Source: Candidatus Levyibacteriota bacterium
Lineage (GTDB): Bacteria > Patescibacteriota > Microgenomatia > Levybacterales > UBA12049
DNA: 64,000 bases
Assembly (NCBI GenBank): GCA_016182235.1
Contig: JACOXT010000003.1
Span: 130,209-194,208, forward strand
Reading direction: 5' to 3'
Shown: positions 16,425 to 59,576 of the stretch, one piece after another
Position numbering within the stretch: the stretch's first letter is position 1
Layout: each line of letters starts with the position of its first letter
Notes under the pieces: generated by a model
Database searches by the model: none
Seen by the model: the letters and a program-made list of their open reading frames with translations, nothing else
Told to the model about the DNA's origin: nothing
Translations under genes and position numbers: made by a program

Positions 16425-18398
16425 ATGAAAAATCAAAAGGGACAGTCGTTAATTGAGATATTGATTGTAATAGGTTTGAGCGCGATTTTGTTGCCCGCGC
16501 TTCTCACTGGACTTGTCGCGTCTCGGGAAGGAAAAGCTCAAGATTCTCAAAGATCTCAGGCTTTAACTCTTCTAACAACGACTATAGAGGCAGCGCGCAG
16601 CGTACGCGAGAACGGTTGGGCTAGTTTTGCTATAAACGGTACATTTCATCCGGAAATTTCAGGGTCGTCTTGGACGCTTGTAGGAGGGAGTGATACTATA
16701 AATGGATTCACGAGAAAAATTGAGATTAGCGATGTAAACAGAGACTCAAATGGAACAATTGTTACAACTGGCGGAACTCTTGACCCATCAACTAAAAAAA
16801 TAGTAGCAACAATTTCATGGGGACTTCCTTATATTTCCTTAATTTCCGACACGCTTTATATGACCAGATATTTAGACAACAATGGCCATATAGATACTAC
16901 CACAAGTGATTTCACAATTGGAGCTACGCATACAAGCACAGTCACCCAAGATCCTCCGTCTGCAGATGGAGAGGTTATTTTGGGTGCTGGTGGAGGAGGA
17001 GGAAATTGGTGCACGCCAAGCGCATCAATTGTTGCACAAGATTTGCCCAAAAGTGGAGTGGCAAATGCGATTACAGCAATAGAGGGATCAGATGGAAATG
17101 TTATTGTATTTGCTGGTACGGGGGATAATTCTTCCGGTGTATCATTTGCAGATGTTGATATTGTTGGAGATACTCCGTCCATTTCTACTTCTATTCCTGC
17201 AACTTTTGATGGTTACAAAACTAACGCGGTTTTTGGAGAGAATGACTATTCATATCTTGCAACGGATAACAATTCAAAAGAAATAGTAATAATGAGCCTA
17301 ACTCAATTTAGCAATCCTCCTACAAATTCGAAATATCTGGAAGTTGGTTCAATTAATTTACCGGGAAACGTAAATGGAAATAGTATTTTTGTGGTCAACA
17401 ACAAAGCTTATGTCCTTTCTTCCAATAATAAGTTTTATATTTATAATCTTTCAGCTGATCGAACTTCTGCTACTCTTCAAAATACAGGAGGCCTTACGAT
17501 TTCAGGATCTGGCAAAAAAGTTTTGGTTGCAGAAGATTATGCGTATGTAGCAACTGGTGCAACATCAAATCAGTTCCAGATAATCAACGTAGAAAGTTCT
17601 TCAAGTCCAAATATTGCCGGACAAATAACTCTTGGATCATCCCAAACAGGAGTTGATATATATGTGAATACCAACATAGAGGAACCTTCTGTTGCTTATT
17701 TTGTAACTTCGTATTCAGCAGGTAATTCGAATGTATTTAAAATTAATATCTCAAATGAATCCAGCCCAGTGGTAGAAGGTAGTGGTTATAGCACGAATGG
17801 AATGAATCCTACAGGTATAACTGTTGTTACAGGGAATAAGGGAATAGTCGTAGGATCTGGGGGAACAGAACAATATCAAGTGTTTGATGTTGGAACTTTC
17901 GTTAAATGCGCAGGGCTAGTTTATTCCACAGGAATAAATGGTGTGTCGTCTGTTTTGAAAACCAGTGGATATGCTTATTCTTATATTATTACTGGAGATG
18001 CGAGCGCAGAGCTTAAAATAATTCTTGGAGGCGGCGGAAGCGGAACAACTTATGCTCCGGCAGGAAGTTTTATTTCAGATGCAGTAGATGCTCTTATTCC
18101 AACAGTATTTAATCGATTTGAATTTACAGTTACTCAGCCTTTGCAGACAACCATAGGATTTCAGGTAGCAGTTGCAAATCCTGCTCCAGATTGTGCAAGC
18201 GCAACCTATGAATTCATTGGTCCGGGTCTTACTTCTAATATAAGTGATGTATTTACAACCGGAAGTCCAGTACCAATACTAAGCAGTGGCTCTTATCAAA
18301 ATCCCGGTCAATGTTTTAAATATAAAGTTTATTTTACAACTGTTGATTCAAACCAAACACCAGTTTTATATGATTTTACACTAAATTATAGTCCATGA
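16425..18398 (+). CDS. Large (657 aa) pseudopilin with an LVIVD-like beta-propeller module; candidate tip adhesin
   Basis: N-terminus KG/QSLIEILIVIGLSAILL. Repeated blocks include DYSYLATDNNSKEIVIMSL..SNPP, NKAYVLSSNNKFYIYNLS, DYAYVATGATSNQFQIINVESSSSP and VAYFVTS...VFKINISNESSP. Confidence 0.7.
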   Translation: MKNQKGQSLIEILIVIGLSAILLPALLTGLVASREGKAQDSQRSQALTLLTTTIEAARSVRENGWASFAINGTFHPEISGSSWTLVGGSDTINGFTRKIEISDVNRDSNGTIVTTGGTLDPSTKKIVATISWGLPYISLISDTLYMTRYLDNNGHIDTTTSDFTIGATHTSTVTQDPPSADGEVILGAGGGGGNWCTPSASIVAQDLPKSGVANAITAIEGSDGNVIVFAGTGDNSSGVSFADVDIVGDTPSISTSIPATFDGYKTNAVFGENDYSYLATDNNSKEIVIMSLTQFSNPPTNSKYLEVGSINLPGNVNGNSIFVVNNKAYVLSSNNKFYIYNLSADRTSATLQNTGGLTISGSGKKVLVAEDYAYVATGATSNQFQIINVESSSSPNIAGQITLGSSQTGVDIYVNTNIEEPSVAYFVTSYSAGNSNVFKINISNESSPVVEGSGYSTNGMNPTGITVVTGNKGIVVGSGGTEQYQVFDVGTFVKCAGLVYSTGINGVSSVLKTSGYAYSYIITGDASAELKIILGGGGSGTTYAPAGSFISDAVDALIPTVFNRFEFTVTQPLQTTIGFQVAVANPAPDCASATYEFIGPGLTSNISDVFTTGSPVPILSSGSYQNPGQCFKYKVYFTTVDSNQTPVLYDFTLNYSP

Positions 18399-18967
18399 AG
18401 ACAATACAAATTGTTAAATTGCTAAATTGTTATATTGCCAAGTTAATAAAAAACAATACAACAATAAAACAATACAACAATCATAATGGCTTTACGATTG
18501 TTGAGTTGCTGATGTTTATGGGGCTTTTGTCAATAATGCTTGTTATATTGACGGGGATCTTTGTATCAGCTCTAGATGTTCAGCTTGAATCTGAAGCCAA
18601 TTCTTCTGTACAGCAAGATGGAAATTACATCCTTGCCAAATTATCGGGAGACATGCATAAGGCAACAAATATTTCAATCCCGAGTTCCTTAGGCGGATCT
18701 GCAACCAATTTTCAAGTAGTTGTTGGAGGTGTAAGCTATACGTATAATGTAAATTCGGATAACCTTGAGCTAAATGATGGGGTTTCAGCAGACGCTCTTA
18801 ATAGTTATAATTCAAGTATCTCTAATTTTTCGGCAACTCGATTGGGAAATAGCGGAAAAGTAGAAGATACGCTTAAAATTAATTTTACACTGACAAGCAA
18901 AACAAAAAAAAATACGGGTTTTGAGACAAAAGATTTTGAGACAACGCTTTCTCTTAGAAGACAATGA
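18395..18967 (+). CDS. Prepilin-type pseudopilin with an unusually long 32-aa leader
   Basis: ...YNNHNG/FTIVELLMFMGLLSIML. ATGA overlap with the upstream gene. Confidence 0.75.
   Translation: MKTIQIVKLLNCYIAKLIKNNTTIKQYNNHNGFTIVELLMFMGLLSIMLVILTGIFVSALDVQLESEANSSVQQDGNYILAKLSGDMHKATNISIPSSLGGSATNFQVVVGGVSYTYNVNSDNLELNDGVSADALNSYNSSISNFSATRLGNSGKVEDTLKINFTLTSKTKKNTGFETKDFETTLSLRRQ
18401..18482. repeat. Mirror-symmetric array of degenerate 8-bp repeats (about 4 x AAATTGNT, then about 4 x AACAATAN) inside the prepilin leader coding region
   Basis: Read directly: ttaaattg ctaaattg ttatattg ... aacaatac aacaataa aacaatac aacaatca. The arms are imperfect reverse complements. Confidence 0.6.
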
Positions 18968-19371
18968 TGCATAAATTTCAAATTTCAAATTTCAAATTTC
19001 AAATTTCAGAGGGTGGGCAGGCTTTAACTACACTTTTGATTTTTGTAATAATAGCTGTAACAATTACATCGGGAGCAATAGTAGTTCTTATCGCGAATAC
19101 CACATCGACAAGTAAAATTCAGGAAGGTTTGGCTGCGTATTACGCGGCAGAGAGCGGCGTTGAGAATGCGCTACTTCGTCTGTTAAGAGACCCGAATTAT
19201 ACAGGTGAAACTTTATCTATAGATACGTCAACTGCTGAAATTACCGTAACAGGAAGTAATCCAAAAACTGTTGTTTCAGTTGGGCAAAATGGAAACTTTA
19301 AACGCACTGTTCAAGTACAAATGAATTATAATAGTGGGTATTACACCTTTTCCAGTTGGAAAGAGATTTAA
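18964..19371 (+). CDS. PilX-N-like minor pilin / pseudopilin
   Basis: GGQALTTLLIFVIIAVTITSGAIV followed by AAYYAAESGVENALLRLL, the PilX N-terminal pattern. Confidence 0.6.
   Translation: MMHKFQISNFKFQISEGGQALTTLLIFVIIAVTITSGAIVVLIANTTSTSKIQEGLAAYYAAESGVENALLRLLRDPNYTGETLSIDTSTAEITVTGSNPKTVVSVGQNGNFKRTVQVQMNYNSGYYTFSSWKEI
18973..19007. repeat. Perfect tandem heptamer (AAATTTC) x5 in the 5' coding region of the PilX-like gene
   Basis: Read directly; encodes KFQISNFKFQIS. The unit length is not a multiple of three. Confidence 0.9.
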
Positions 19372-27921: not shown

Positions 27922-27981
27922 CAATTAGCCTCTAGCGTTCAGTTTTAACTAGACGCTTGACGCTGATAACTAAACGCTAAA
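27912..27981. repeat. Heptamer-periodic mirror array (4 x TAGCNNN, then CGCTNNN/AACTNNN units) spanning the rplV stop and the rplV-rpsC gap
   Basis: tagcgcc tagcaat tagcctc tagcgtt cagtttt aactaga cgcttga cgctgat aactaaa cgctaaa. tagcgtt (27933-39) pairs with aacgcta (27973-79). Confidence 0.65.
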
Positions 27982-27986
27982 AAGAT

Positions 27987-35081: not shown

Positions 35082-35735
35082 ATGGTTGAGGCAGGATCTG
35101 GTATTCAAGGTAGTTCGCCAGAGGCTCAAGAAAGAAGGCGGGAAATAGTTGTGATTTGCGGTCCGGAAGGGTCCGGAAAAACAACTCAAGCAATTAATCT
35201 TTCGAGAGATTTAAATTTACCTTATGTCACAATGGGGGATGTATTTGTAGAACTAGCAAAAGAGGAAACAGAATTCGGCCTAGAAATTAAAACTATGCTA
35301 AAAGAACATAGATACTCGACCATAAAAGAGTTTGAAACGGCTTTTCTTTGGAGAATGGCAAAAGGTGATGTTAAAGAGGGATTTATACTTGATGGAGGAT
35401 TTAGGACAGTAGAGCAAGTTCAAAATTTTGAGTTACAGCTCAGAAAAGCAGGGATATCAGAGAGCATTCCTATTGATGTTGTATATTTCCGTGTAGCAGG
35501 ATGGGAGGCAATAGATAGGGTTTTAACTGGAAACAGAGAGGGTCGTTTGTATGACACTGAGGAAGGAGTATTAGATAGACTTTCTCATCATTATTATCAA
35601 TTAGGAGAAAGAATGTCATATGCCCGAAGGAAATGGCCATTTATTATAATAGATTGCACAAATAAGACTGAAGAGATGATCGAAGAAGAGACAATGAAAA
35701 ATTTAGCAGCTAACAGGGTGGTGATGAAAGAATGA
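35082..35735 (+). CDS. Adenylate-kinase-family paralog (divergent NMP kinase)
   Basis: GPEGSGKTTQ, ILDGGFRTVEQV. Confidence 0.65.
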   Translation: MVEAGSGIQGSSPEAQERRREIVVICGPEGSGKTTQAINLSRDLNLPYVTMGDVFVELAKEETEFGLEIKTMLKEHRYSTIKEFETAFLWRMAKGDVKEGFILDGGFRTVEQVQNFELQLRKAGISESIPIDVVYFRVAGWEAIDRVLTGNREGRLYDTEEGVLDRLSHHYYQLGERMSYARRKWPFIIIDCTNKTEEMIEEETMKNLAANRVVMKE

Positions 35736-35935
35736 ATGAAAGATATCAGGAATTGCATCCGTTACATTTTGAAATTCTAAATGAAGTTAAAGATGCTTCA
35801 GGAAATAAGCGGGTATCATTAGCAAAGGATTATATTAGCGGAATCGATGGAGGTTTAGCAACAACGTTTGATACGGAAGTGAACTTTGAGGGATTATTAA
35901 TACTTAAGAATCTACTCGAGAAAAGACTAAAATGA
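35732..35935 (+). CDS. Hypothetical 67-aa protein embedded in the kinase array
   Basis: 4-nt overlap with the upstream gene. No recognisable motif. Confidence 0.45.
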   Translation: MNERYQELHPLHFEILNEVKDASGNKRVSLAKDYISGIDGGLATTFDTEVNFEGLLILKNLLEKRLK

Positions 35936-35949
35936 AGTAATTCAAACGC

Positions 35950-36534
35950 ATGGCGCTAACAGAACATAAACCTTTTATTATCGGAATTACCGGGGCGTTT
36001 GGGAGCGGCAAGTCAACAGCCGCTAATTTTTTTGAAGATAAGGGGCTTAAAAAAATCGTTCTCTCCTCTTTCATTGAGGAGGAAGCGAAAAAAAGAGGGA
36101 TAAAAAAGATTACCAGAAAGTTGTTACAAGATATTGGAAATGATTTAAGAGATAAATTTGGTTCTGGAATTCTTGCTAAAAAAGCAGTTCTATTTTTGAA
36201 AAATGAGAGGTTAGATAGGGCAGTTGTTGATGGAGTGAGAAATCTTGGTGAAGTTGAAGAATTTAAAAAGAATAGCAATTTTGTTCTTATCGCGGTTGTA
36301 GCTAATCGAAAAACCAGGTTTGAACGCTTAAGAAATCTTAAAAGACGTGAAAAGTTAAATTGGGATACATTCGAAAAGCTTGATAGAAGAGATCTGGGCA
36401 TTGGAGAGAAACAAACAGGTCTTCAAACAGCTTTTTGCATAGCTTCGGCTGATATATTTGTCGAAGGAAATGAAGATATTGATGAATTTAGGCAAAAACT
36501 AGATAAGATTCTAAGAAGAATTGAGAATTTATGA
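35950..36534 (+). CDS. P-loop kinase of the dephospho-CoA-kinase / dNMP-kinase-like type
   Basis: IIGITGAFGSGKSTAANFF resembles the CoaE P-loop. Substrate unknown. Confidence 0.55.
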   Translation: MALTEHKPFIIGITGAFGSGKSTAANFFEDKGLKKIVLSSFIEEEAKKRGIKKITRKLLQDIGNDLRDKFGSGILAKKAVLFLKNERLDRAVVDGVRNLGEVEEFKKNSNFVLIAVVANRKTRFERLRNLKRREKLNWDTFEKLDRRDLGIGEKQTGLQTAFCIASADIFVEGNEDIDEFRQKLDKILRRIENL

Positions 36535-37091
36535 TAATTGTTTTTATAGGCCCGCCATTTGCGGGAAAAGATACTCAAGCAGTAATGCTGTCAAAGAAAT
36601 TATCGTTATCGCTATTTAGCATGGGTGGTTTGATAAGAGAAGCTCGTGAGAAAGGAGACAAAGTTATAGAAGATGCATATAGGAATTATTCATTGAAAGG
36701 CTTGCATCTGCCGATTGGTATTAAGTTTGGGTTGCTTAGGAAAAAAATAGAAAATCTCAATGACGGATTCATTCTAAACAATTTCCCTGCGACAAATGAA
36801 GACCTGCAAGTTTTTAATGAATATTTAAAAGAGCATAATCTAAGCGTATATAAAGCATTTTATCTAAATATCTCAAAAAATATAATGCAAAAAAGACTTG
36901 ACGCATCAACCAGAAAAAGATCGGATGATGATTTAAAAATAATTTTGGCAAGAAGAGAGATACAAGACAAAGATAGAATTCCTGTTATCAATTACTTTAG
37001 AAATTTGGGAATACTTGAGGAGGTAGACGGAGAAAGAGAGATTGATGAGGTAAATAAAGATATATTAAGTCGTTTGAGAAAAATAACATGA
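36531..37091 (+). CDS. Adenylate-kinase-family paralog (third copy)
   Basis: GPPFAGKDTQ, ILNNFPATNEDL. Confidence 0.65.
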   Translation: MIIVFIGPPFAGKDTQAVMLSKKLSLSLFSMGGLIREAREKGDKVIEDAYRNYSLKGLHLPIGIKFGLLRKKIENLNDGFILNNFPATNEDLQVFNEYLKEHNLSVYKAFYLNISKNIMQKRLDASTRKRSDDDLKIILARREIQDKDRIPVINYFRNLGILEEVDGEREIDEVNKDILSRLRKIT

Positions 37092-37870
37092 TCAATATTA
37101 AAACTAAAGAGGAAATAGAGATAATGAGAGAAGGGGGAAGGATATTGGCGGAAGTTTTATTTACGCTTATTGAAAGTGTGAGGCCAGGAGTTTCTGAGCT
37201 GGATATTGATAAACTTGCCGAAACATTAATTTTAAAGGCGGGAGGAGAACCAGCATTTAAAAGAGTGAAAGACTACAAAAATACAATTTGTGTATCTACA
37301 AATGACGTTGTAGTTCATGGCGTCCCAACTGACTATACATTTAAAGAAGGGGACGTTGTCGGAATAGATTGCGGAGTCTATTATAAAGGATTTAATACGG
37401 ATATGGCGGAAACGCTTCGCGTCTCAACAGAGAACGAAGGACTAAGAACTAAAAACTCAAGTAATGAAATAGATAGGTTTTTGGAGACTGGGATGAAGGC
37501 GCTTCAGGCTGGGATAAATGCCGCTCATTTAGGAAATAGAGTTGGACATATTTCTAGGGCAATCCAGAGCATTGTTGATAAGGAAGGATACTCTGTTGTA
37601 AAGAGTCTTGTTGGGCATGGGATTGGGCAAAACCTTCACGAGGAGCCAGATGTGCCTGGATATCTTTCTCAATCTCTTGATAAGACTTCGGAGTTAAGAC
37701 AGGGAATGGCAATTGCGATTGAGGCCATCTATAATATGGGAAAAGATGATGTAATTTACTCCAACTCAGACGGATGGACTATTAAAACTAAAGATCAAAG
37801 CTTGTCAGGGCTTTTTGAAAGAACAGTCGCGATTACAAAAGAAGGGCCATTAATCTTAACTAAGAAGTGA
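37088..37870 (+). CDS. map: Methionine aminopeptidase type I
   Basis: GIDCGVYYKGFNTDMAET, GHGIG, IEA. Carries an extra segment of about 9 aa encoded by a heptamer repeat. Confidence 0.93.
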   Translation: MINIKTKEEIEIMREGGRILAEVLFTLIESVRPGVSELDIDKLAETLILKAGGEPAFKRVKDYKNTICVSTNDVVVHGVPTDYTFKEGDVVGIDCGVYYKGFNTDMAETLRVSTENEGLRTKNSSNEIDRFLETGMKALQAGINAAHLGNRVGHISRAIQSIVDKEGYSVVKSLVGHGIGQNLHEEPDVPGYLSQSLDKTSELRQGMAIAIEAIYNMGKDDVIYSNSDGWTIKTKDQSLSGLFERTVAITKEGPLILTKK

Positions 37871-37899
37871 TTGAAGTTTTGAGGCAGATTTGATATAAT
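37871..37899 (+). promoter_or_regulatory. Internal promoter TTGAAG-17-TATAAT upstream of infA
   Basis: TTGAAG at 37871-37876 and TATAAT at 37894-37899. Confidence 0.55.
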
Positions 37900-37907
37900 T
37901 TGTAGTT

Positions 37908-38126
37908 ATGCCACATCAGGGTTCTTTTGAAATTGAAGGAGTTGTTAAAGAGTCTTTGCCGAATACCCTTTTTAGAGTTGAGTTGGCAAACGGGGTTGTT
38001 ATCTTATGTCATTTATCAGGCAAGATGAGAATGAATTTTATTAAAATTTTGCCCGGAGACAAAGTGCGTATAGAGATGACTCCCTATGATAAAGCAAAAG
38101 GAAGGATAGTGTACAGATATAAATGA
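37908..38126 (+). CDS. infA: Translation initiation factor IF-1
   Basis: [20 protein letters not shown]...[16 protein letters not shown]. Confidence 0.97.
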
Positions 38127-38236
38127 AAGTTCAGGCGAGTGTTAAAAAAAGATGCGTTAAGTGCAAAATTATAAGAAGACGCGGAGTTGTCCGTGTTGTT
38201 TGTGACAATCCAAAGCACAAGCAGAGACAAGGATAA
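38123..38236 (+). CDS. rpmJ: 50S ribosomal protein L36 (37 aa, absent from the ORF track)
   Basis: Hand translation [41 protein letters not shown] overlap with the infA stop. Confidence 0.93.
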
Positions 38237-38237
38237 T

Positions 38238-38645
38238 ATGAGGATTGCAGGATATAATTTACCGGATACAAAAAGAGTAGATATTGCTCTGACCTACGTT
38301 TATGGAATCGGACGGAGAAATGTTGTGGGAATTCTTAAAAAAGCCGGTGTTGAAAGCTTTAAAAGAGTGAATGTTCTTTCTGAAGAAGAGCAGAAAAGAA
38401 TACAAAATGCTTTAGAGACATATAAACTTGAAGGAGATCTAAGAGCAGAGGTAAGCACTGATATTAAAAGATTAAAAGAAATTTCTTCTTATAGAGGAAC
38501 GCGTCATAGCAAGAATCTTCCAGCGAGAGGACAGCGCACAAGATCTAATGCGAGAACCAAAAGAGGAAAAAGAGTTACAATTGGAGCGATTAAAAAAGAA
38601 GTCGCTGTAAAGCTCGGGATTGACAAGAAAGAAGAGGGGAAATAG
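38238..38645 (+). CDS. rpsM: 30S ribosomal protein S13
   Basis: Start moved to the ATG at 38238 (MRIAGYNLPDTKRVDIALTYVYGIG). Confidence 0.95.
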   Translation: MRIAGYNLPDTKRVDIALTYVYGIGRRNVVGILKKAGVESFKRVNVLSEEEQKRIQNALETYKLEGDLRAEVSTDIKRLKEISSYRGTRHSKNLPARGQRTRSNARTKRGKRVTIGAIKKEVAVKLGIDKKEEGK

Positions 38646-38651
38646 TTTTAT

Positions 38652-39050
38652 ATGGCGGATAGTAAAAGTGAAAAAGAAAAAGTAAAGAAAAAAAATGTTC
38701 TGGTCTCTAGTAACGGTAGAGCTTATATAACCTCTACATTTAATAATACTATAGTTACAATAACAAATGACAAAGGAGAGGTTATCGGATGGAGTAGTGC
38801 CGGAGCAAGCGGTTTTAAGGGTACAAGAAAATCTACTCCATATGCTGGAACTACAGCAGCAGAGAATGTTACTAGAAAGGCAGTTGCAAAAGGTCTGAAG
38901 ACAGTTGAGGTATACGTAAAAGGTCCGGGGGGAGGTCGGGACTCTGCGCTTCGCGGAATTAAAAGCGGCGGACTTTCGATATCTTTGATTGCAGATATAA
39001 CACCTATGCCACATAACGGACCGAGGGCTAAAAAGAAGAGGAGGATCTAG
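38652..39050 (+). CDS. rpsK: 30S ribosomal protein S11
   Basis: [15 protein letters not shown]...WSSAG..GFKG.RK.TP.A. Confidence 0.96.
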
Positions 39051-39064
39051 TTAACTTATAGTTT

Positions 39065-39142
39065 TTGGTCTTTGGTCTATAGCAAATGACTAAAGACTAA
39101 TAGCAAATGACTAAAGACTAATAGCAAATGACTAAAGACTAA
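39065..39142. repeat. 2 x TTGGTCT followed by 3 perfect copies of a 21-bp unit (tagcaaatgactaaagactaa = three heptamers), ending immediately before the rpsD ATG
   Basis: Read directly: copies at 39080-39100, 39101-39121 and 39122-39142. uuggucuuugguc can pair with gacuaaagacuaa using G-U wobbles. Confidence 0.9.
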
Positions 39143-39143
39143 T

Positions 39144-39752
39144 ATGGGAAGATATACTGGGCCGAAACATAAAACAGCAAGAAGAGAAGGAATAAATATT
39201 CTAGAAAAAGAGTCGGAAAGCCTCAAAAGAAGGTTGAATGTTCCACCGGGAGGCATACAGAGAAAAAAAATAAGAAGAAGGCTTTCTGAATATGGCCAAC
39301 AGCTTCGAGAGAAACAGAAAGCTAAAGCAATATACGGGCTTTTGGAAAAACAGCTTGCAAATTTGGTTAAAGAATTGGGAAAGAAAAAGGGAGAAACAGG
39401 AGAAATGATAATAGCCTCTCTAGAAACAAGATTAGACAATATCGTTTTTCGTTTGGGTTTTGCAAAAACAAGAGCACATGCTCGCCAGCTTGTTGCTCAT
39501 AAACACGTTTTAGTTAATGACAAGAAAGTAAATATCCCATCTTACTATGTAAAGGTAAATGATGTTATTTCTTTGACTTCCCCAACGCAGAGTAATGTTC
39601 AGATAGCGCCTCTTCTCTCGGAAAAAGATCGTAAGGTTTTACCATATCTTAAAAAAGAGGGAACAGTAGGGAAGCTTTTAAGAATGCCCAAAAAAGATGA
39701 CGTCCAAGTTCTTTTTGATTTGCAGCCCATTATTGAATATTATTCAAGATAA
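39144..39752 (+). CDS. rpsD: 30S ribosomal protein S4
   Basis: MGRYTGPKHKTARREG... Confidence 0.96.
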   Translation: MGRYTGPKHKTARREGINILEKESESLKRRLNVPPGGIQRKKIRRRLSEYGQQLREKQKAKAIYGLLEKQLANLVKELGKKKGETGEMIIASLETRLDNIVFRLGFAKTRAHARQLVAHKHVLVNDKKVNIPSYYVKVNDVISLTSPTQSNVQIAPLLSEKDRKVLPYLKKEGTVGKLLRMPKKDDVQVLFDLQPIIEYYSR

Positions 39753-39768
39753 TGGTACAATGTAGCTT

Positions 39769-40692
39769 ATGGTAAATCCGATATTTAAGGTAAAAGAAGA
39801 GAAAACTGGCGAAAATGAAAGCAGATTTATTATTGAACCTTTAGACCAGGGTTTTGGTCATACTCTCGGAAATGCTTTACGAAGAGTGCTTTTAACTTCT
39901 ATAACAGGTGCTGCAGTCACTTCAGTTAAGATTCCTGGTGTAAAACATAAATTCTCAACCATTTCTGGAGTTAAAGAAAACGTTATTGATCTTTTACTTA
40001 ATATAAAAGGTTTAAATTTTAAACTTCTTGACTCAACGAATAAAGGAAAGGTTTCCTTGTCAATTAAAGGGCCGAAGAAAATAACAGCTTCAGATTTTGA
40101 CCTGCCTGAAAATATTGAGATTGTAAATAGCGACCATTATATTGCTTATATTAACGATAAAAAGGCAAAGCTTGAAATGGATTTGACAGTCGAGCAAGGC
40201 TTGGGATTTACTTCGTCTGAAGATCAAAAAACCAGCTCACTTGGCGTAATGCCGCTAGATGCAGTTTTTACCCCTGTTAGAAGAGTAAGCTACGAAGTCT
40301 CTGCTACCCGAGTTGGCAGACAGACAGATTTAGACAAACTAGTTTTGAATATTTTGACGAATGGAGTTGTCAGTCCAAGGGAGGCATTGGATGAAGCAGC
40401 TGAAATATTAAGCTCGTACTTTTTGCAGGTTTATGAACCAAAATATTCGGAACCCTCAAAATCATCAACTCAAGAGTCTATGGCTGTTGATAGTATTTCA
40501 AAACTTACAATCGACGAACTAGATTTGCCAACGAGAATTTATAACAGTCTTCGCAATGGAAGCGTTGAGACTATAGGCGATCTTTTGTCTTCAACAAAAA
40601 AGAACTTGATGTCAATGCGAAATATGGGAAACAAATCAATCATGGTTATAGAGGAAAAACTTAAACAAAGAGGGGTATCGTTAGCACAATAA
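39769..40692 (+). CDS. rpoA: DNA-directed RNA polymerase alpha subunit
   Basis: GFGHTLGNALRRVLL; C-terminal domain LDLPTRIYNSLRN. Confidence 0.96.
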   Translation: MVNPIFKVKEEKTGENESRFIIEPLDQGFGHTLGNALRRVLLTSITGAAVTSVKIPGVKHKFSTISGVKENVIDLLLNIKGLNFKLLDSTNKGKVSLSIKGPKKITASDFDLPENIEIVNSDHYIAYINDKKAKLEMDLTVEQGLGFTSSEDQKTSSLGVMPLDAVFTPVRRVSYEVSATRVGRQTDLDKLVLNILTNGVVSPREALDEAAEILSSYFLQVYEPKYSEPSKSSTQESMAVDSISKLTIDELDLPTRIYNSLRNGSVETIGDLLSSTKKNLMSMRNMGNKSIMVIEEKLKQRGVSLAQ

Positions 40693-40776
40693 TTGTGCTA
40701 AATCTCAAATCTTAAATCGCAAAGCCCAAAGCTGCAGCTTTCAGTTTTGACTTTTGACATTTGAGTTTTGAGATTT
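40681..40776. repeat. 9-bp perfect hairpin across the rpoA stop codon, then a mirror array of heptamers (5 x AAANNNN | 6 x NNNNTTT)
   Basis: ttagcacaa-taa-ttgtgctaa; then aaatctc aaatctt aaatcgc aaagccc aaagctg | cagcttt cagtttt gactttt gacattt gagtttt gagattt. Confidence 0.85.
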
Positions 40777-40781
40777 TTATT

Positions 40782-46095: not shown

Positions 46096-46806
46096 ATGAT
46101 CAGAGAAAGAGAATCAGGTAGCATTAATGGGGTCCACCTTGAACAGGAAAGAAGAAAAGGATTTGGAGTACTTTTGCCTATCGTTGAGATAGATCCCAGT
46201 AGAAATGGAGAAAATATAACACAGCCTAAATTGTTCACTATTATAGAGAAGAAATCTAAGCCTGAGACAGGAAAGATAGCTGGACAAATTTCATTTCCAG
46301 GCGAAACTGCAAAAATTCATAATGAACCGATGGGGGACAATATAATTGGAGGAATAGCAGAGGTTACAGATAATGATTATACAATTAGAAACAATATTTT
46401 TTTCATGCGAGATTCCTCTTTTATTAAAGAAAGAATTTTTATAAACGGCAATCCTTTTGATATGGCTATATTAATACATGTTGGTCCTTTCGATAATGCC
46501 ATCAAACCTGTGGATGTTAATGAAGTTTCACCAAACGGACCAATGACAATTCAAGAAATTAGAAGAAAAGATCCTACCAGAGATTCTAGAATTGTAAGAC
46601 GAATTGTGCATCAAGTCGCAGACTTAGAAGATTCGGAAGGTCTCATAAGAAGGGTCGTATCTGACTTTTTTAATTTTCCTACCTTGAGAATTCCTTTGCG
46701 AGCTATTTTGCCTGATGGCTTTTCCTCTATAAGGGATTTTTTTCAAGAAAGAGAAAGGACTGTAGACGTTATTGGCTCACTTTCCAAACCTTCTCTGTCT
46801 TCTTGA
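46096..46806 (+). CDS. Hypothetical protein with a degenerate Nudix-like segment
   Basis: GQISFPGETAKIHNEPMGDNIIGGIAEVT lacks the REx2EE catalytic residues. It starts 3 nt after the kinase gene. Confidence 0.45.
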   Translation: MIRERESGSINGVHLEQERRKGFGVLLPIVEIDPSRNGENITQPKLFTIIEKKSKPETGKIAGQISFPGETAKIHNEPMGDNIIGGIAEVTDNDYTIRNNIFFMRDSSFIKERIFINGNPFDMAILIHVGPFDNAIKPVDVNEVSPNGPMTIQEIRRKDPTRDSRIVRRIVHQVADLEDSEGLIRRVVSDFFNFPTLRIPLRAILPDGFSSIRDFFQERERTVDVIGSLSKPSLSS

Positions 46807-47475
46807 GTATTCTGCAATAGCGTTTTCTATATCTTCGTCATTAAGATCTGGAAAGTGTTTCTCAAGAAAAAAATACTCCGCATATGCTGCTTGCCAGATC
46901 ATAAGGCCTGATGTTCGCATCTCTCCACTTGTTCTTATGATTAAATCCGGATCAGGATGAGGTTGATTAGCAGTATCTAAAAATTGGCTAAAGTTCTCTA
47001 TGTTAATACTTAATACTTTATACTTTATACTTAATACTTTCTTTATTGCCCTTATTACTTCATCGCGTCCTCCATAATCGAGCGCAATATTTAAGACATA
47101 TTTGTCAAATGATTTTGTTTTTTCCTCTGAATTTTGGATTTTTTTAAGTAAACCTTTTGGGATTCTGTCTTTTCTTCCAAGATGAATAATTCTTATTTTT
47201 TCCTTCATTGCCTCCTTTAGATTTTTGTCTATGAATATTTCGTACATCTTCATAAGGTAATTCACTTCTTCTTTACTTCTGTCCCAATTTTCAGTTGAGA
47301 ATGCCCACATTGTGAGAGTATTAACGCCAAGGGATCGAATTTTTCTCCCGATTTTTATTGCCACATCAAATCCTCGTCTATGTCCTTCAAGACTTGGAAG
47401 TCTGTGTTCTTTTGCCCACCTTCTGTTTCCATCAGGAGTAATTGCTATATGATTAGGGATATTAAGATTAGCCAT
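46777..47475 (-). CDS. uppS: Isoprenyl transferase (undecaprenyl diphosphate synthase family)
   Basis: HIAITPDGNRRWAK, DLIIRTSGEMRTSGLMIWQAAYAE. Confidence 0.92.
   Translation of the reverse strand: MANLNIPNHIAITPDGNRRWAKEHRLPSLEGHRRGFDVAIKIGRKIRSLGVNTLTMWAFSTENWDRSKEEVNYLMKMYEIFIDKNLKEAMKEKIRIIHLGRKDRIPKGLLKKIQNSEEKTKSFDKYVLNIALDYGGRDEVIRAIKKVLSIKYKVLSINIENFSQFLDTANQPHPDPDLIIRTSGEMRTSGLMIWQAAYAEYFFLEKHFPDLNDEDIENAIAEYSRRQRRFGK
47003..47037. repeat. Five tandem heptamers (ttaatac ttaatac tttatac tttatac ttaatac) inside the uppS coding sequence
   Basis: Read directly. On the minus strand it encodes KVLSIKYKVLSI. Confidence 0.8.
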
Positions 47476-56991: not shown

Positions 56992-57324
56992 ATGAAAGGA
57001 ATAGCTACGTGTCAAAATTGCATTATTGAGCTGTGGAAAAATGATTGCGAACATTGTGAGGCTGTTAAGCCCATTGTCGCGGAGCTTGAAAAAGAAGGAT
57101 ATGTTTTTGAAAAACACAATATTGAAGAAAAAGATGGAGAAACTCTGTGGCATGAGTATGCCGAGGAAATTGAGAAAAATAATAAAAGCATGGGATATGA
57201 TGAAGGGTATATTTATACACCAACATTTATTAATCCAGACAACAGAAACATTATTGCGTTTACCGATCGTGAGCCGACTAAAACTGAGTTAATCCGGTTT
57301 GCGGAAGGAGGCGAACCAAAATGA
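56992..57324 (+). CDS. Thioredoxin/glutaredoxin-fold protein with a CEHC motif
   Basis: IIELWKNDCEHCEAVKPIVAELEKEG. Confidence 0.65.
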   Translation: MKGIATCQNCIIELWKNDCEHCEAVKPIVAELEKEGYVFEKHNIEEKDGETLWHEYAEEIEKNNKSMGYDEGYIYTPTFINPDNRNIIAFTDREPTKTELIRFAEGGEPK

Positions 57325-57461
57325 TGGGGCATGGAAAACACGATAACTGCGCGATGTGCAGAATGGGAAAAGCTGTTGGGATGATAGAAAAGCATCCTGA
57401 GGGCTGTGAGTGCGAAACTCATCCAAAGAAGAAAGATGAAAGAGAAAACTATGGTAAATAA
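57321..57461 (+). CDS. Cys/His-rich micro-protein A (46 aa; absent from the ORF track)
   Basis: Hand translation MMGHGKHDNCAMCRMGKAVGMIEKHPEGCECETHPKKKDERENYGK. SD GGAGG lies 9 nt upstream. ATGA overlap with the upstream stop and 11-nt overlap with the gdh start. A paralog lies at 59433. Confidence 0.7.
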   Translation: MMGHGKHDNCAMCRMGKAVGMIEKHPEGCECETHPKKKDERENYGK

Positions 57462-59432: not shown

Positions 59433-59576
59433 ATGATGGGGCATGGAAAACACGATAACTGCGCGATTTGTCAAATGGGAAAAGCTGTTGGTATGATAGA
59501 AAAATGTACAGATAAAAATTGTACTAATCCAGTTCATAAAAAAGAGAAAGAGGAGGAAATTAAAAAAAGTGAGTAG
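59433..59576 (+). CDS. Cys/His-rich micro-protein B (47 aa; absent from the ORF track)
   Basis: Hand translation MMGHGKHDNCAICQMGKAVGMIEKCTDKNCTNPVHKKEKEEEIKKSE. SD GGGAGGTGA. 8-nt overlap with the GTG start of the downstream glutaredoxin-like gene. Confidence 0.7.
   Translation: MMGHGKHDNCAICQMGKAVGMIEKCTDKNCTNPVHKKEKEEEIKKSE

Follow-up and report, generated by a model that had tools for sequence, protein, structure and literature searches.

The 93-nt spacer between rpsK and rpsD, the genes of ribosomal proteins S11 and S4, in a 64,000-nt stretch of contig JACOXT010000003.1 of a Candidatus Levyibacteriota bacterium (hereafter the window, whose coordinates are used throughout) carries three perfect tandem copies of a 21-nt unit that end 1 nt before the rpsD ATG. 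Our analysis suggests that this triple repeat is probably a recently expanded member of a class of heptamer-built hairpins found at operon junctions of Levybacteria, which resemble repetitive extragenic palindromic (REP) sequences and MITEs, the miniature transposable elements with inverted repeats. Its loop and 3′ arm would have been triplicated by slippage. On this account, the striking perfect repeat next to rpsD, which is essential, would be the product of slippage within a repeat class and not a new S4 riboregulator.

The triple repeat and its recent gain

From 5′ to 3′, the spacer consists of ttaactta, three heptamers TAGTTTT TGGTCTT TGGTCTA that form the 5′ arm (39059-39079), three copies of TAGCAAATGACTAAAGACTAA (39080-39142) and a single t (39143), which is followed by the rpsD ATG at 39144; all features of the junction lie on the + strand. 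The 5′ arm contains TTGGTCT twice (39065-39071 and 39072-39078) before a final a at 39079, and the three identical units occupy 39080-39100, 39101-39121 and 39122-39142. When Tandem Repeats Finder (TRF) was applied to 39079-39144, it returned a period of 21 with 3.1 copies, 100% matches and a score of 132, confirming the three perfect units described in an earlier note on this DNA. Sites matching the 21-mer with at most three mismatches were restricted to these three in the 64 kb, and 0 were expected from 100 shuffles. The spacer is also periodic at 7 nt, with TRF arrays of period 7 at 39064-39078 (100% matches) and 39088-39142 (7.9 copies, 69% matches), and the 21-nt unit itself equals 3 x 7. 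Stop codons close all three frames of each unit, again as the earlier note had stated: frame 0 has TAG and TAA, frame 1 has TGA and frame 2 has TAA.

The upstream cistron rpsK spans 38652-39050 with its stop codon TAG at 39048-39050, and Pfam Ribosomal_S11 was matched by the identical product of contig L001, which is described below. The downstream cistron rpsD spans 39144-39752. Its homologues carry Pfam S4 domains, and the S4 protein of the window is 100% identical to the NCBI entry 'Candidatus Levybacteria 30S ribosomal protein S4'.

The two parts of the spacer are complementary to each other. The segment TTGGTCTTTGGTC (39065-39077) is 85% complementary over 13-nt arms to the GACTAAAGACTAA segment of every unit, which corresponds in RNA to 11 Watson-Crick and two G-U pairs, and the intervening loops for units 1, 2 and 3 are 10, 31 and 52 nt long. 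In the simplest hairpin, GACTAAAGACTAA of unit 1 is the 3′ arm, and the first 8 nt of this unit, TAGCAAAT, are its share of the 10-nt loop TATAGCAAAT. When the 5′ arm was paired with a single unit as a simple hairpin, the predicted energy was -16.1 kcal/mol for unit 1, -14.9 for unit 2 and -14.3 for unit 3. The predicted ensemble of the spacer was dominated by a composite fold with a minimum free energy (MFE) of -22.2 kcal/mol, in which 39058-39070 paired with unit 3 (probability ~0.85) and 39072-39078 with the last 7 nt of unit 2 (~0.70). The stem-loop is thus predicted to close in several alternative registers, with the 5′ arm and copies 3 and 2 in the favoured fold. For the longer region 39040-39175, the MFE was -28.6 kcal/mol (z = -3.48). 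The wobble-containing pairing of the TTGGTCT pair with each unit and the alternative-register hairpins at the translation start, both put forward in the earlier note, are borne out by the pair counts and by these modelled energies and probabilities.

To place the spacer in its lineage, 160 loci were gathered by S4 homology from genome and metagenome collections, and 64 non-redundant Levybacteria loci were counted. The nearest S4 homologues were 87% (L162), 86% (L163-166) and 81% (L167-169) identical to that of the window. In the first two groups, the rpsK stop and rpsD start overlap (TAATG or TAGTG), and in the third the spacer is 6 nt. Therefore, the comparison with related genomes proposed in the earlier note showed the 93-nt spacer to be a recent gain in this lineage. 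Among the 64 loci, the lengths of the rpsK-rpsD spacer were bimodal: 42 loci had at most 25 nt (18 of them with an overlap), none had 26-39 nt, and the remaining 22 had at least 40 nt. Nearly all of the long spacers were single long hairpins, mostly with both arms made of tandem, lineage-specific heptamers of unrelated sequence, such as (TTGAGAA)n/(CTTTCAA)n, (AAATWTC)n/(GAAATTR)n and (AGCGTTC)n/(GACGCTA)n. The long rpsK-rpsD spacers of other lineages shared no sequence with that of the window. In one locus (L002), GC-rich hairpins were found at this junction in place of heptamer ones.

A Shine-Dalgarno-like motif, AAGGAG or GAGGAG, is conserved in the last rpsK codons of nearly all Levybacteria loci and lies 5-9 nt before the rpsD ATG where the junction overlaps. 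The window retains it as GAGGAGGA (39038-39045), here ~98 nt 5′ of the rpsD ATG. Distant hairpin-bearing lineages have a new GGAGG 3′ of the hairpin, whereas the clade nearest to the window has no new one. No GGAGG-like motif was present in the 20 nt before the rpsD ATG of the window, as the earlier note had observed. Considering that only ~17-30 of the 82 window genes have a Shine-Dalgarno-like motif, against a background of 7%, its absence before rpsD is ordinary.

The array was also recovered in part from a separate assembly. Logan contig L001 (SRR12113430) carries an identical rpsK followed by an identical spacer that includes one complete unit and the first 8 nt of another, where the contig ends. 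Such a break is the expected behaviour of a k-mer assembler at a true tandem repeat, and the SRR12113430 reads may not be independent of those of this genome. Like L001, which ends inside the 21-nt array, contig L170 from the same run ends inside the heptamer hairpin between rpoA and rplQ, and k-mer assemblies of Levybacteria are systematically broken up by the heptamer and 21-nt repeats. The window S4 protein, looked up by exact match, was not on record, and look-ups of S11 and RpoA returned only short Logan contigs broken at the repeats; the Logan contigs were the only other assemblies of this organism.

Heptamer hairpins as a class in Levybacteria

The rpsK-rpsD spacer combines two features, being an imperfect palindrome of the REP or MITE type and an array of tandem 7-nt units of the kind seen in heptameric simple sequence repeats (SSRs) such as the short tandemly repeated repetitive (STRR) sequences. 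Two sister elements on the + strand of the window share this architecture. The element at 27922-27986 fills the spacer between rplV (L22) and rpsC (S3) and is a heptamer-periodic hairpin of AGCGTTC and GACGCT units (top period 7; -17.8 kcal/mol). The rpsK-rpsD element of another Levybacteria genome (L089) is its homologue, with a local alignment score of 71 versus a maximum of 19 in 300 shuffles. The other is found in the part of the ribosomal-protein cluster that holds the alpha operon, where the gene order is map, infA, rpmJ, rpsM, rpsK, rpsD, rpoA (39769-40692) and rplQ (from ~40782). Here, a long heptamer-periodic hairpin at 40693-40781 fills the rpoA-rplQ spacer (-28.8 kcal/mol, z -2.75) and is conserved as a family in several relatives. 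The hairpin is followed by UUUUUAUU and the rplQ AUG, and its 3′ arm holds the best sigma-70-like match of the region (TTGACA-18-TATTAT, 11/12). At least two unrelated hairpin families occupy this junction in the relatives, some apparently with nested insertions.

Long structured spacers recur at other junctions of the ribosomal-protein operons. Spacers of at least 40 nt were present at map-infA in 43 of 48 loci, at infA-rpmJ in 15 of 47, at rpmJ-rpsM in 21 of 50, at rpoA-rplQ in 53 of 56 and at rplM-rpsI in 9 of 32. When 173 long spacers were folded, the mean z was -3.8 and 76% of them fell below -2.

The periodicity of 7 nt is a property of the lineage. In 312.6 kb of the 64 non-redundant Levybacteria loci, there were 147 period-7 arrays versus 2-4 in shuffles (~40-fold), and arrays of periods 5, 6 and 8 numbered 11, 12 and 1, respectively. 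Only 8 period-7 arrays were counted in 386 kb from other phyla. The arrays were biased towards intergenic DNA, at 2.05 per kb of non-coding versus 0.24 per kb of coding sequence (~9-fold, with crude ORF calls). Taken together with the sister elements, this excess supports the fallback offered in the earlier note, namely that the spacer is another site at which the heptamer repeat family has expanded.

At least some heptamer families are dispersed and recently mobile. Copies of a ~66-nt sister element, 97-100% identical, flank rpmJ on both sides and also lie at rpsK-rpsD in two loci (L083 and L009). Moreover, the metagenome contigs L084 and L083 are 99.75-100% identical in their flanks over 4.3 kb, whereas their rpsK-rpsD junctions are 7 nt (2493-2499, the heptamer-like TTTAAAT) and a 69-nt heptamer hairpin (1194-1262), respectively. 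Dispersed near-identical copies within a locus were found in 9 of 78 short loci, L083, L084, L009, L008 and L031 among them, and elements that appear to be nested were seen in L082 and L163. In L082, a GC-rich mini-hairpin (TCCCGCTGAGCGGGA) lies in the loop of the heptamer hairpin at ~1185-1200, which suggests that a second type of small element has inserted itself within the hairpin.

Some heptamer arrays have no complementary partner, and arrays are also found inside coding loops. In map, which encodes methionine aminopeptidase (MetAP), arrays lie in frame at 37437-37457 of the window and at the same spot in L006, L007, L016, L017, L091, L103, L107 and others. The loop that they encode is variable (QNSKLKTQN, KDKGLRIK, RNSKFEIRNSK and others) and is missing from L005 and L024. 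Since these arrays sit in frame in the MetAP loop, heptamer expansion acts in coding DNA too. Within the ORF of undecaprenyl-diphosphate synthase (UppS; - strand, 46777-47475), the array (TTAATAC) x5.3 at 47003-47039 leaves the frame open. The arrays in the MetAP loop and in uppS point to an expansion process at the DNA level.

Heptanucleotide repeats are present in the cyanobacterium Calothrix PCC 7601, and we take these to be the STRR repeats. In Nostoc and Xanthomonas, heptameric SSRs are over-represented between genes; some occur as inverted pairs, and polymerase slippage has been named as their cause (Rehm et al. 2015, PMC4692102). That study describes GGGGA(C/T)T arrays in Nostoc PCC 7120, GGGAATC in Xanthomonas and three tandem heptanucleotides in Calothrix PCC 7601, and cites a 2007 report of heptameric repeats being over-represented among bacterial SSRs. 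The Levybacteria arrays are similar in several respects: the unit is exactly 7 nt and period 7 is strongly and specifically enriched over neighbouring periods, the arrays favour intergenic DNA and differ among close relatives in length as well as sequence, and some form inverted pairs able to fold into stem-loops. In both cases, polymerase slippage is the proposed cause. However, the Levybacteria units are AT-rich and vary by locus and lineage instead of being a few genome-wide G-rich motifs, and the arrays therefore have no G-quadruplex potential. Most of them are also paired in one hairpin that fills a stop-start junction inside an operon, and the host is a member of the candidate phyla radiation (CPR) with a tiny genome. 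The rpsK-rpsD element of the window differs further in that its repeating unit is now 21 nt (3 x 7) and one arm alone has been amplified.

The elements were also compared with REP sequences, REP doublets forming hairpins (REPINs), bacterial interspersed mosaic elements (BIMEs) and bacterial MITEs (Bertels & Rainey 2011, PMC3116915). Like these, the Levybacteria elements are short (50-130 nt) imperfect palindromes in intergenic DNA, one sister family has multiple near-identical copies in a genome and differs in its presence between near-identical strains, and one element is apparently nested in the loop of another (L082, L163). An internal tandem repeat has a precedent in a MITE of Porphyromonas gingivalis that contains a minisatellite (PMC4596501). 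Unlike REPs, the arms of the Levybacteria elements are internally periodic at 7 nt, and the element of the window has no second copy detected in 64 kb. No RAYT or IS200/IS605 transposase (TnpA), terminal inverted repeats or target-site duplication came to light, although no search was aimed at them. None of the literature searched described heptamer hairpins of Levybacteria, CPR or Patescibacteria.

These arrays add a second, phylogenetically remote case to the heptamer excess known from Nostoc and Xanthomonas. In the loci, which were sampled around ribosomal-protein operons, Levybacteria, CPR bacteria with very small and dense genomes, tolerate many 7-nt-periodic palindromes in their most conserved operons and even in a MetAP loop. 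The many independent natural 'insertions' between translationally coupled genes could show how genomes poor in Shine-Dalgarno motifs keep the stoichiometry of their operons.

Origin of the element and competing explanations

The following sequence of events would account for the spacer. Ancestrally, the stop and start at this junction overlapped or almost touched (TAATG), and the last rpsK codons contained the Shine-Dalgarno sequence of rpsD. A small hairpin, in which a loop separated two to three TTGGTCT-type heptamers from two GACTAAA-type ones, would then have come to occupy the junction, probably by insertion of a dispersed element, as we infer by analogy with the sister family; absence of the element itself is known just from relatives sharing no more than 87% S4 identity. 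The junction sequences (aat...gat) are at most suggestive as traces of such an insertion. Replication slippage would subsequently have duplicated the 21-nt module of loop and 3′ arm (3 x 7 nt) twice, and very recently, which would be why the three units are identical. The element would be co-transcribed in the operon mRNA and tolerated as a structured spacer, and rpsD would be translated independently of a Shine-Dalgarno sequence, as for most genes of this genome. Ribosomes finishing rpsK, whose stop lies 8 nt before the stem, presumably melt the base of the stem, or the structure breathes. Most likely, the element is selfish or near-neutral rather than a dedicated sensor of S4.

Several observations weigh against this origin. 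With a single 5′ arm but three 3′ arms, the element lacks the symmetry of most of its relatives. Neither the 64-kb window, a part of a genome of ~0.6 Mb, nor 170 fetched loci (beyond the same organism) nor viral contigs yielded a second copy of TTGGTCT/GACTAAA, and its membership in a dispersed family is therefore by analogy only. Within the window, all three hairpins are confined to the ribosomal-protein cluster. Finally, the recurrence of hairpins at rpsK-rpsD, together with the downstream Shine-Dalgarno sequences that the older ones have of their own, could mean that the structure is useful and not neutral.

The last two points lead to a credible but minor possibility, in which the spacer is a functional mRNA structure under selection. 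The base of the stem would hide the rpsD start until it is melted by ribosomes ending rpsK, or the structure would be a processing or stability site setting the ratio of the cistrons, and the number of 3′ arms would tune access to the start. Coupling of this kind is familiar from E. coli rpmI-rplT, in a ribosomal-protein operon, and from the MS2 coat-replicase paradigm. The spacer resembles these systems in its setting and in a predicted stem that would hide the downstream start and be opened by ribosomes of the upstream cistron; it differs in being a young insertion that replaced a stop-start overlap instead of a conserved long-range pairing. Selection on the RNA would fit the folding of the long spacers, which are far more structured than shuffled sequences, the near-universal long rpoA-rplQ spacer, and the rpsK-rpsD hairpins that lie flush with stop and start and, in the nearest clade, have no new Shine-Dalgarno sequence. 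In the model, the cost of opening the rpsD start region (-18..+12) with one to six units was 7.1, 5.5, 5.0, 5.1, 4.6 and 4.7 kcal/mol, falling up to three units and then reaching a plateau. However, the predicted gain in accessibility from extra units is small, ~2 kcal/mol, and the nearest relatives have no element. A flush position is the trivial outcome of insertion into an overlapping junction, and arrays without a partner or in coding loops argue for a process at the DNA level. The sense strand was the more stable one in 124 of the 173 spacers versus 48 (p=4e-11), a number that changed to 93 of 173 after base-composition correction (z-scores, p=0.78). Because this strand asymmetry vanished once the G+U-rich composition of the sense strand was taken into account, we do not claim selection at the RNA level.

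Two related ideas about the start were tried and set aside. A split ribosome-binding site, in which the hairpin brings the rpsK Shine-Dalgarno motif beside the AUG, would have a closed-stem spacing of ~15 nt here and a longer one in relatives, and most genes of this genome have no Shine-Dalgarno motif anyway. The idea that extra units act as decoy arms keeping the AUG region single-stranded is weakly supported, given the modelled drop of ~2 kcal/mol, but the predicted dominant fold pairs the AUG-proximal unit. The mini-ORF ATGACTAAAGACTAA (MTKD*) in each unit, the last of which ends 1 nt before the rpsD ATG, was judged a coincidence, having no Shine-Dalgarno sequence and no counterpart in related elements.

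The reading preferred in the earlier note, a lineage-specific S4 control element, would have free S4 bind the repeated leader or its alternative hairpins and repress translation of rpsD. Autogenous repression by S4 is established for both E. coli and B. subtilis, and the known leaders include a pseudoknot at rpsM in the alpha operon of E. coli, the leader of B. subtilis rpsD and the S4 leader families of Rfam. Here, too, a structured RNA lies immediately 5′ of an S4-related cistron, adjoins its start and offers alternative registers. Unlike those leaders, the spacer lies at an internal junction and not at the head of an operon, and it is a simple AU-rich repeat stem, whereas the known operators form either pseudoknots or multi-helix structures that mimic the five-way junction of 16S. 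A search of the whole window against Rfam at the gathering score gave no S4 or alpha-operon leader and no relevant family, and at E<=10 the region 37850-39350 gave just chance matches to microRNAs and small RNAs far below gathering scores. Conservation at the regulated cistron, as in S4 leaders, was not seen, since the relatives at 87%, 86% and 81% S4 identity have no element. The same architecture occurs at junctions unrelated to S4, and the elements of other lineages at the same junction share no sequence with it. The absence of a Shine-Dalgarno sequence is ordinary as well. An S4 operator appears very unlikely and, as far as sequence comparison can tell, is disfavoured rather than disproved.

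It is likewise highly improbable that the repeat acts at the DNA level as iterons or as a phase-variable switch, being 21-bp direct repeats two helical turns apart, or that it is an assembly error. A spacing of 21 bp would place sites on one face of the helix, perfect tandem repeats are hypermutable, and short-read k-mer assemblies do break at the array. Nevertheless, no GC-skew switch or replication gene was found nearby, and a replication origin was rejected on the absence of the former. No promoter-like or terminator-like site was found in 39051-39143: the stem is AU-rich and followed by AUAUGGG, with no U tract after a GC-rich stem as in an intrinsic terminator. In addition to this missing promoter-like site, all frames of the repeat are closed, a step of 21 nt is a multiple of 3 and cannot shift a reading frame, and rpsD is essential, which speaks against phase variation. 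As for an artefact, the separately assembled Logan contig shows the left flank again, then a complete unit and the beginning of another, with the independence of its reads uncertain, and an array of just 63 nt should be spanned by ordinary reads.

A bolder combination of these ideas seems quite unlikely. In it, a class of mobile heptamer-periodic RNA hairpins not described before would home to the stop-start junctions of highly expressed operons as tunable translational couplers, and the number of 21-nt modules would be a slippage-driven rheostat for the output of S4 and the downstream rpoA, possibly read by S4 itself. A recently expanded heptamer hairpin, tolerated between rpsK and rpsD, remains the reading that we prefer.

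Other repeats and genes of the window

A perfect 35-nt array, (AAATTTC) x5, lies at 18973-19008, within the first 15 codons of a PilX_N-like minor-pilin ORF (18964-19371) and just before its hydrophobic segment. As a change by one unit would shift the frame, this ORF is a candidate phase-variable pilin gene. A pseudopilin-like ORF lies nearby (18395-18967), with an N_methyl motif spanning residues 28-52. In its annotated N-terminus, at 18408-18481, octamer arrays (AAATTGTT)n and (AACAATAC)n stand in inverted orientation, and they probably form a hairpin upstream of the real pseudopilin start. A 71-nt dispersed repeat occurs at 57321-57391 and 59433-59503, with 93% identity between the copies, and appears to encode the start of a small Cys/His peptide (MGHGKHDNCA.C...GKAVG.IEK). 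The two copies may be paralogous small genes below the 70-80-aa minimum of the ORF scan. Finally, most bacteria have a single adk after secY, and the window has three consecutive adenylate-kinase-like or AAA-type genes (ADK, AAA_18, ADK) at 35082-37091, 3′ of secY, an arrangement that is the same in L001 and L163.

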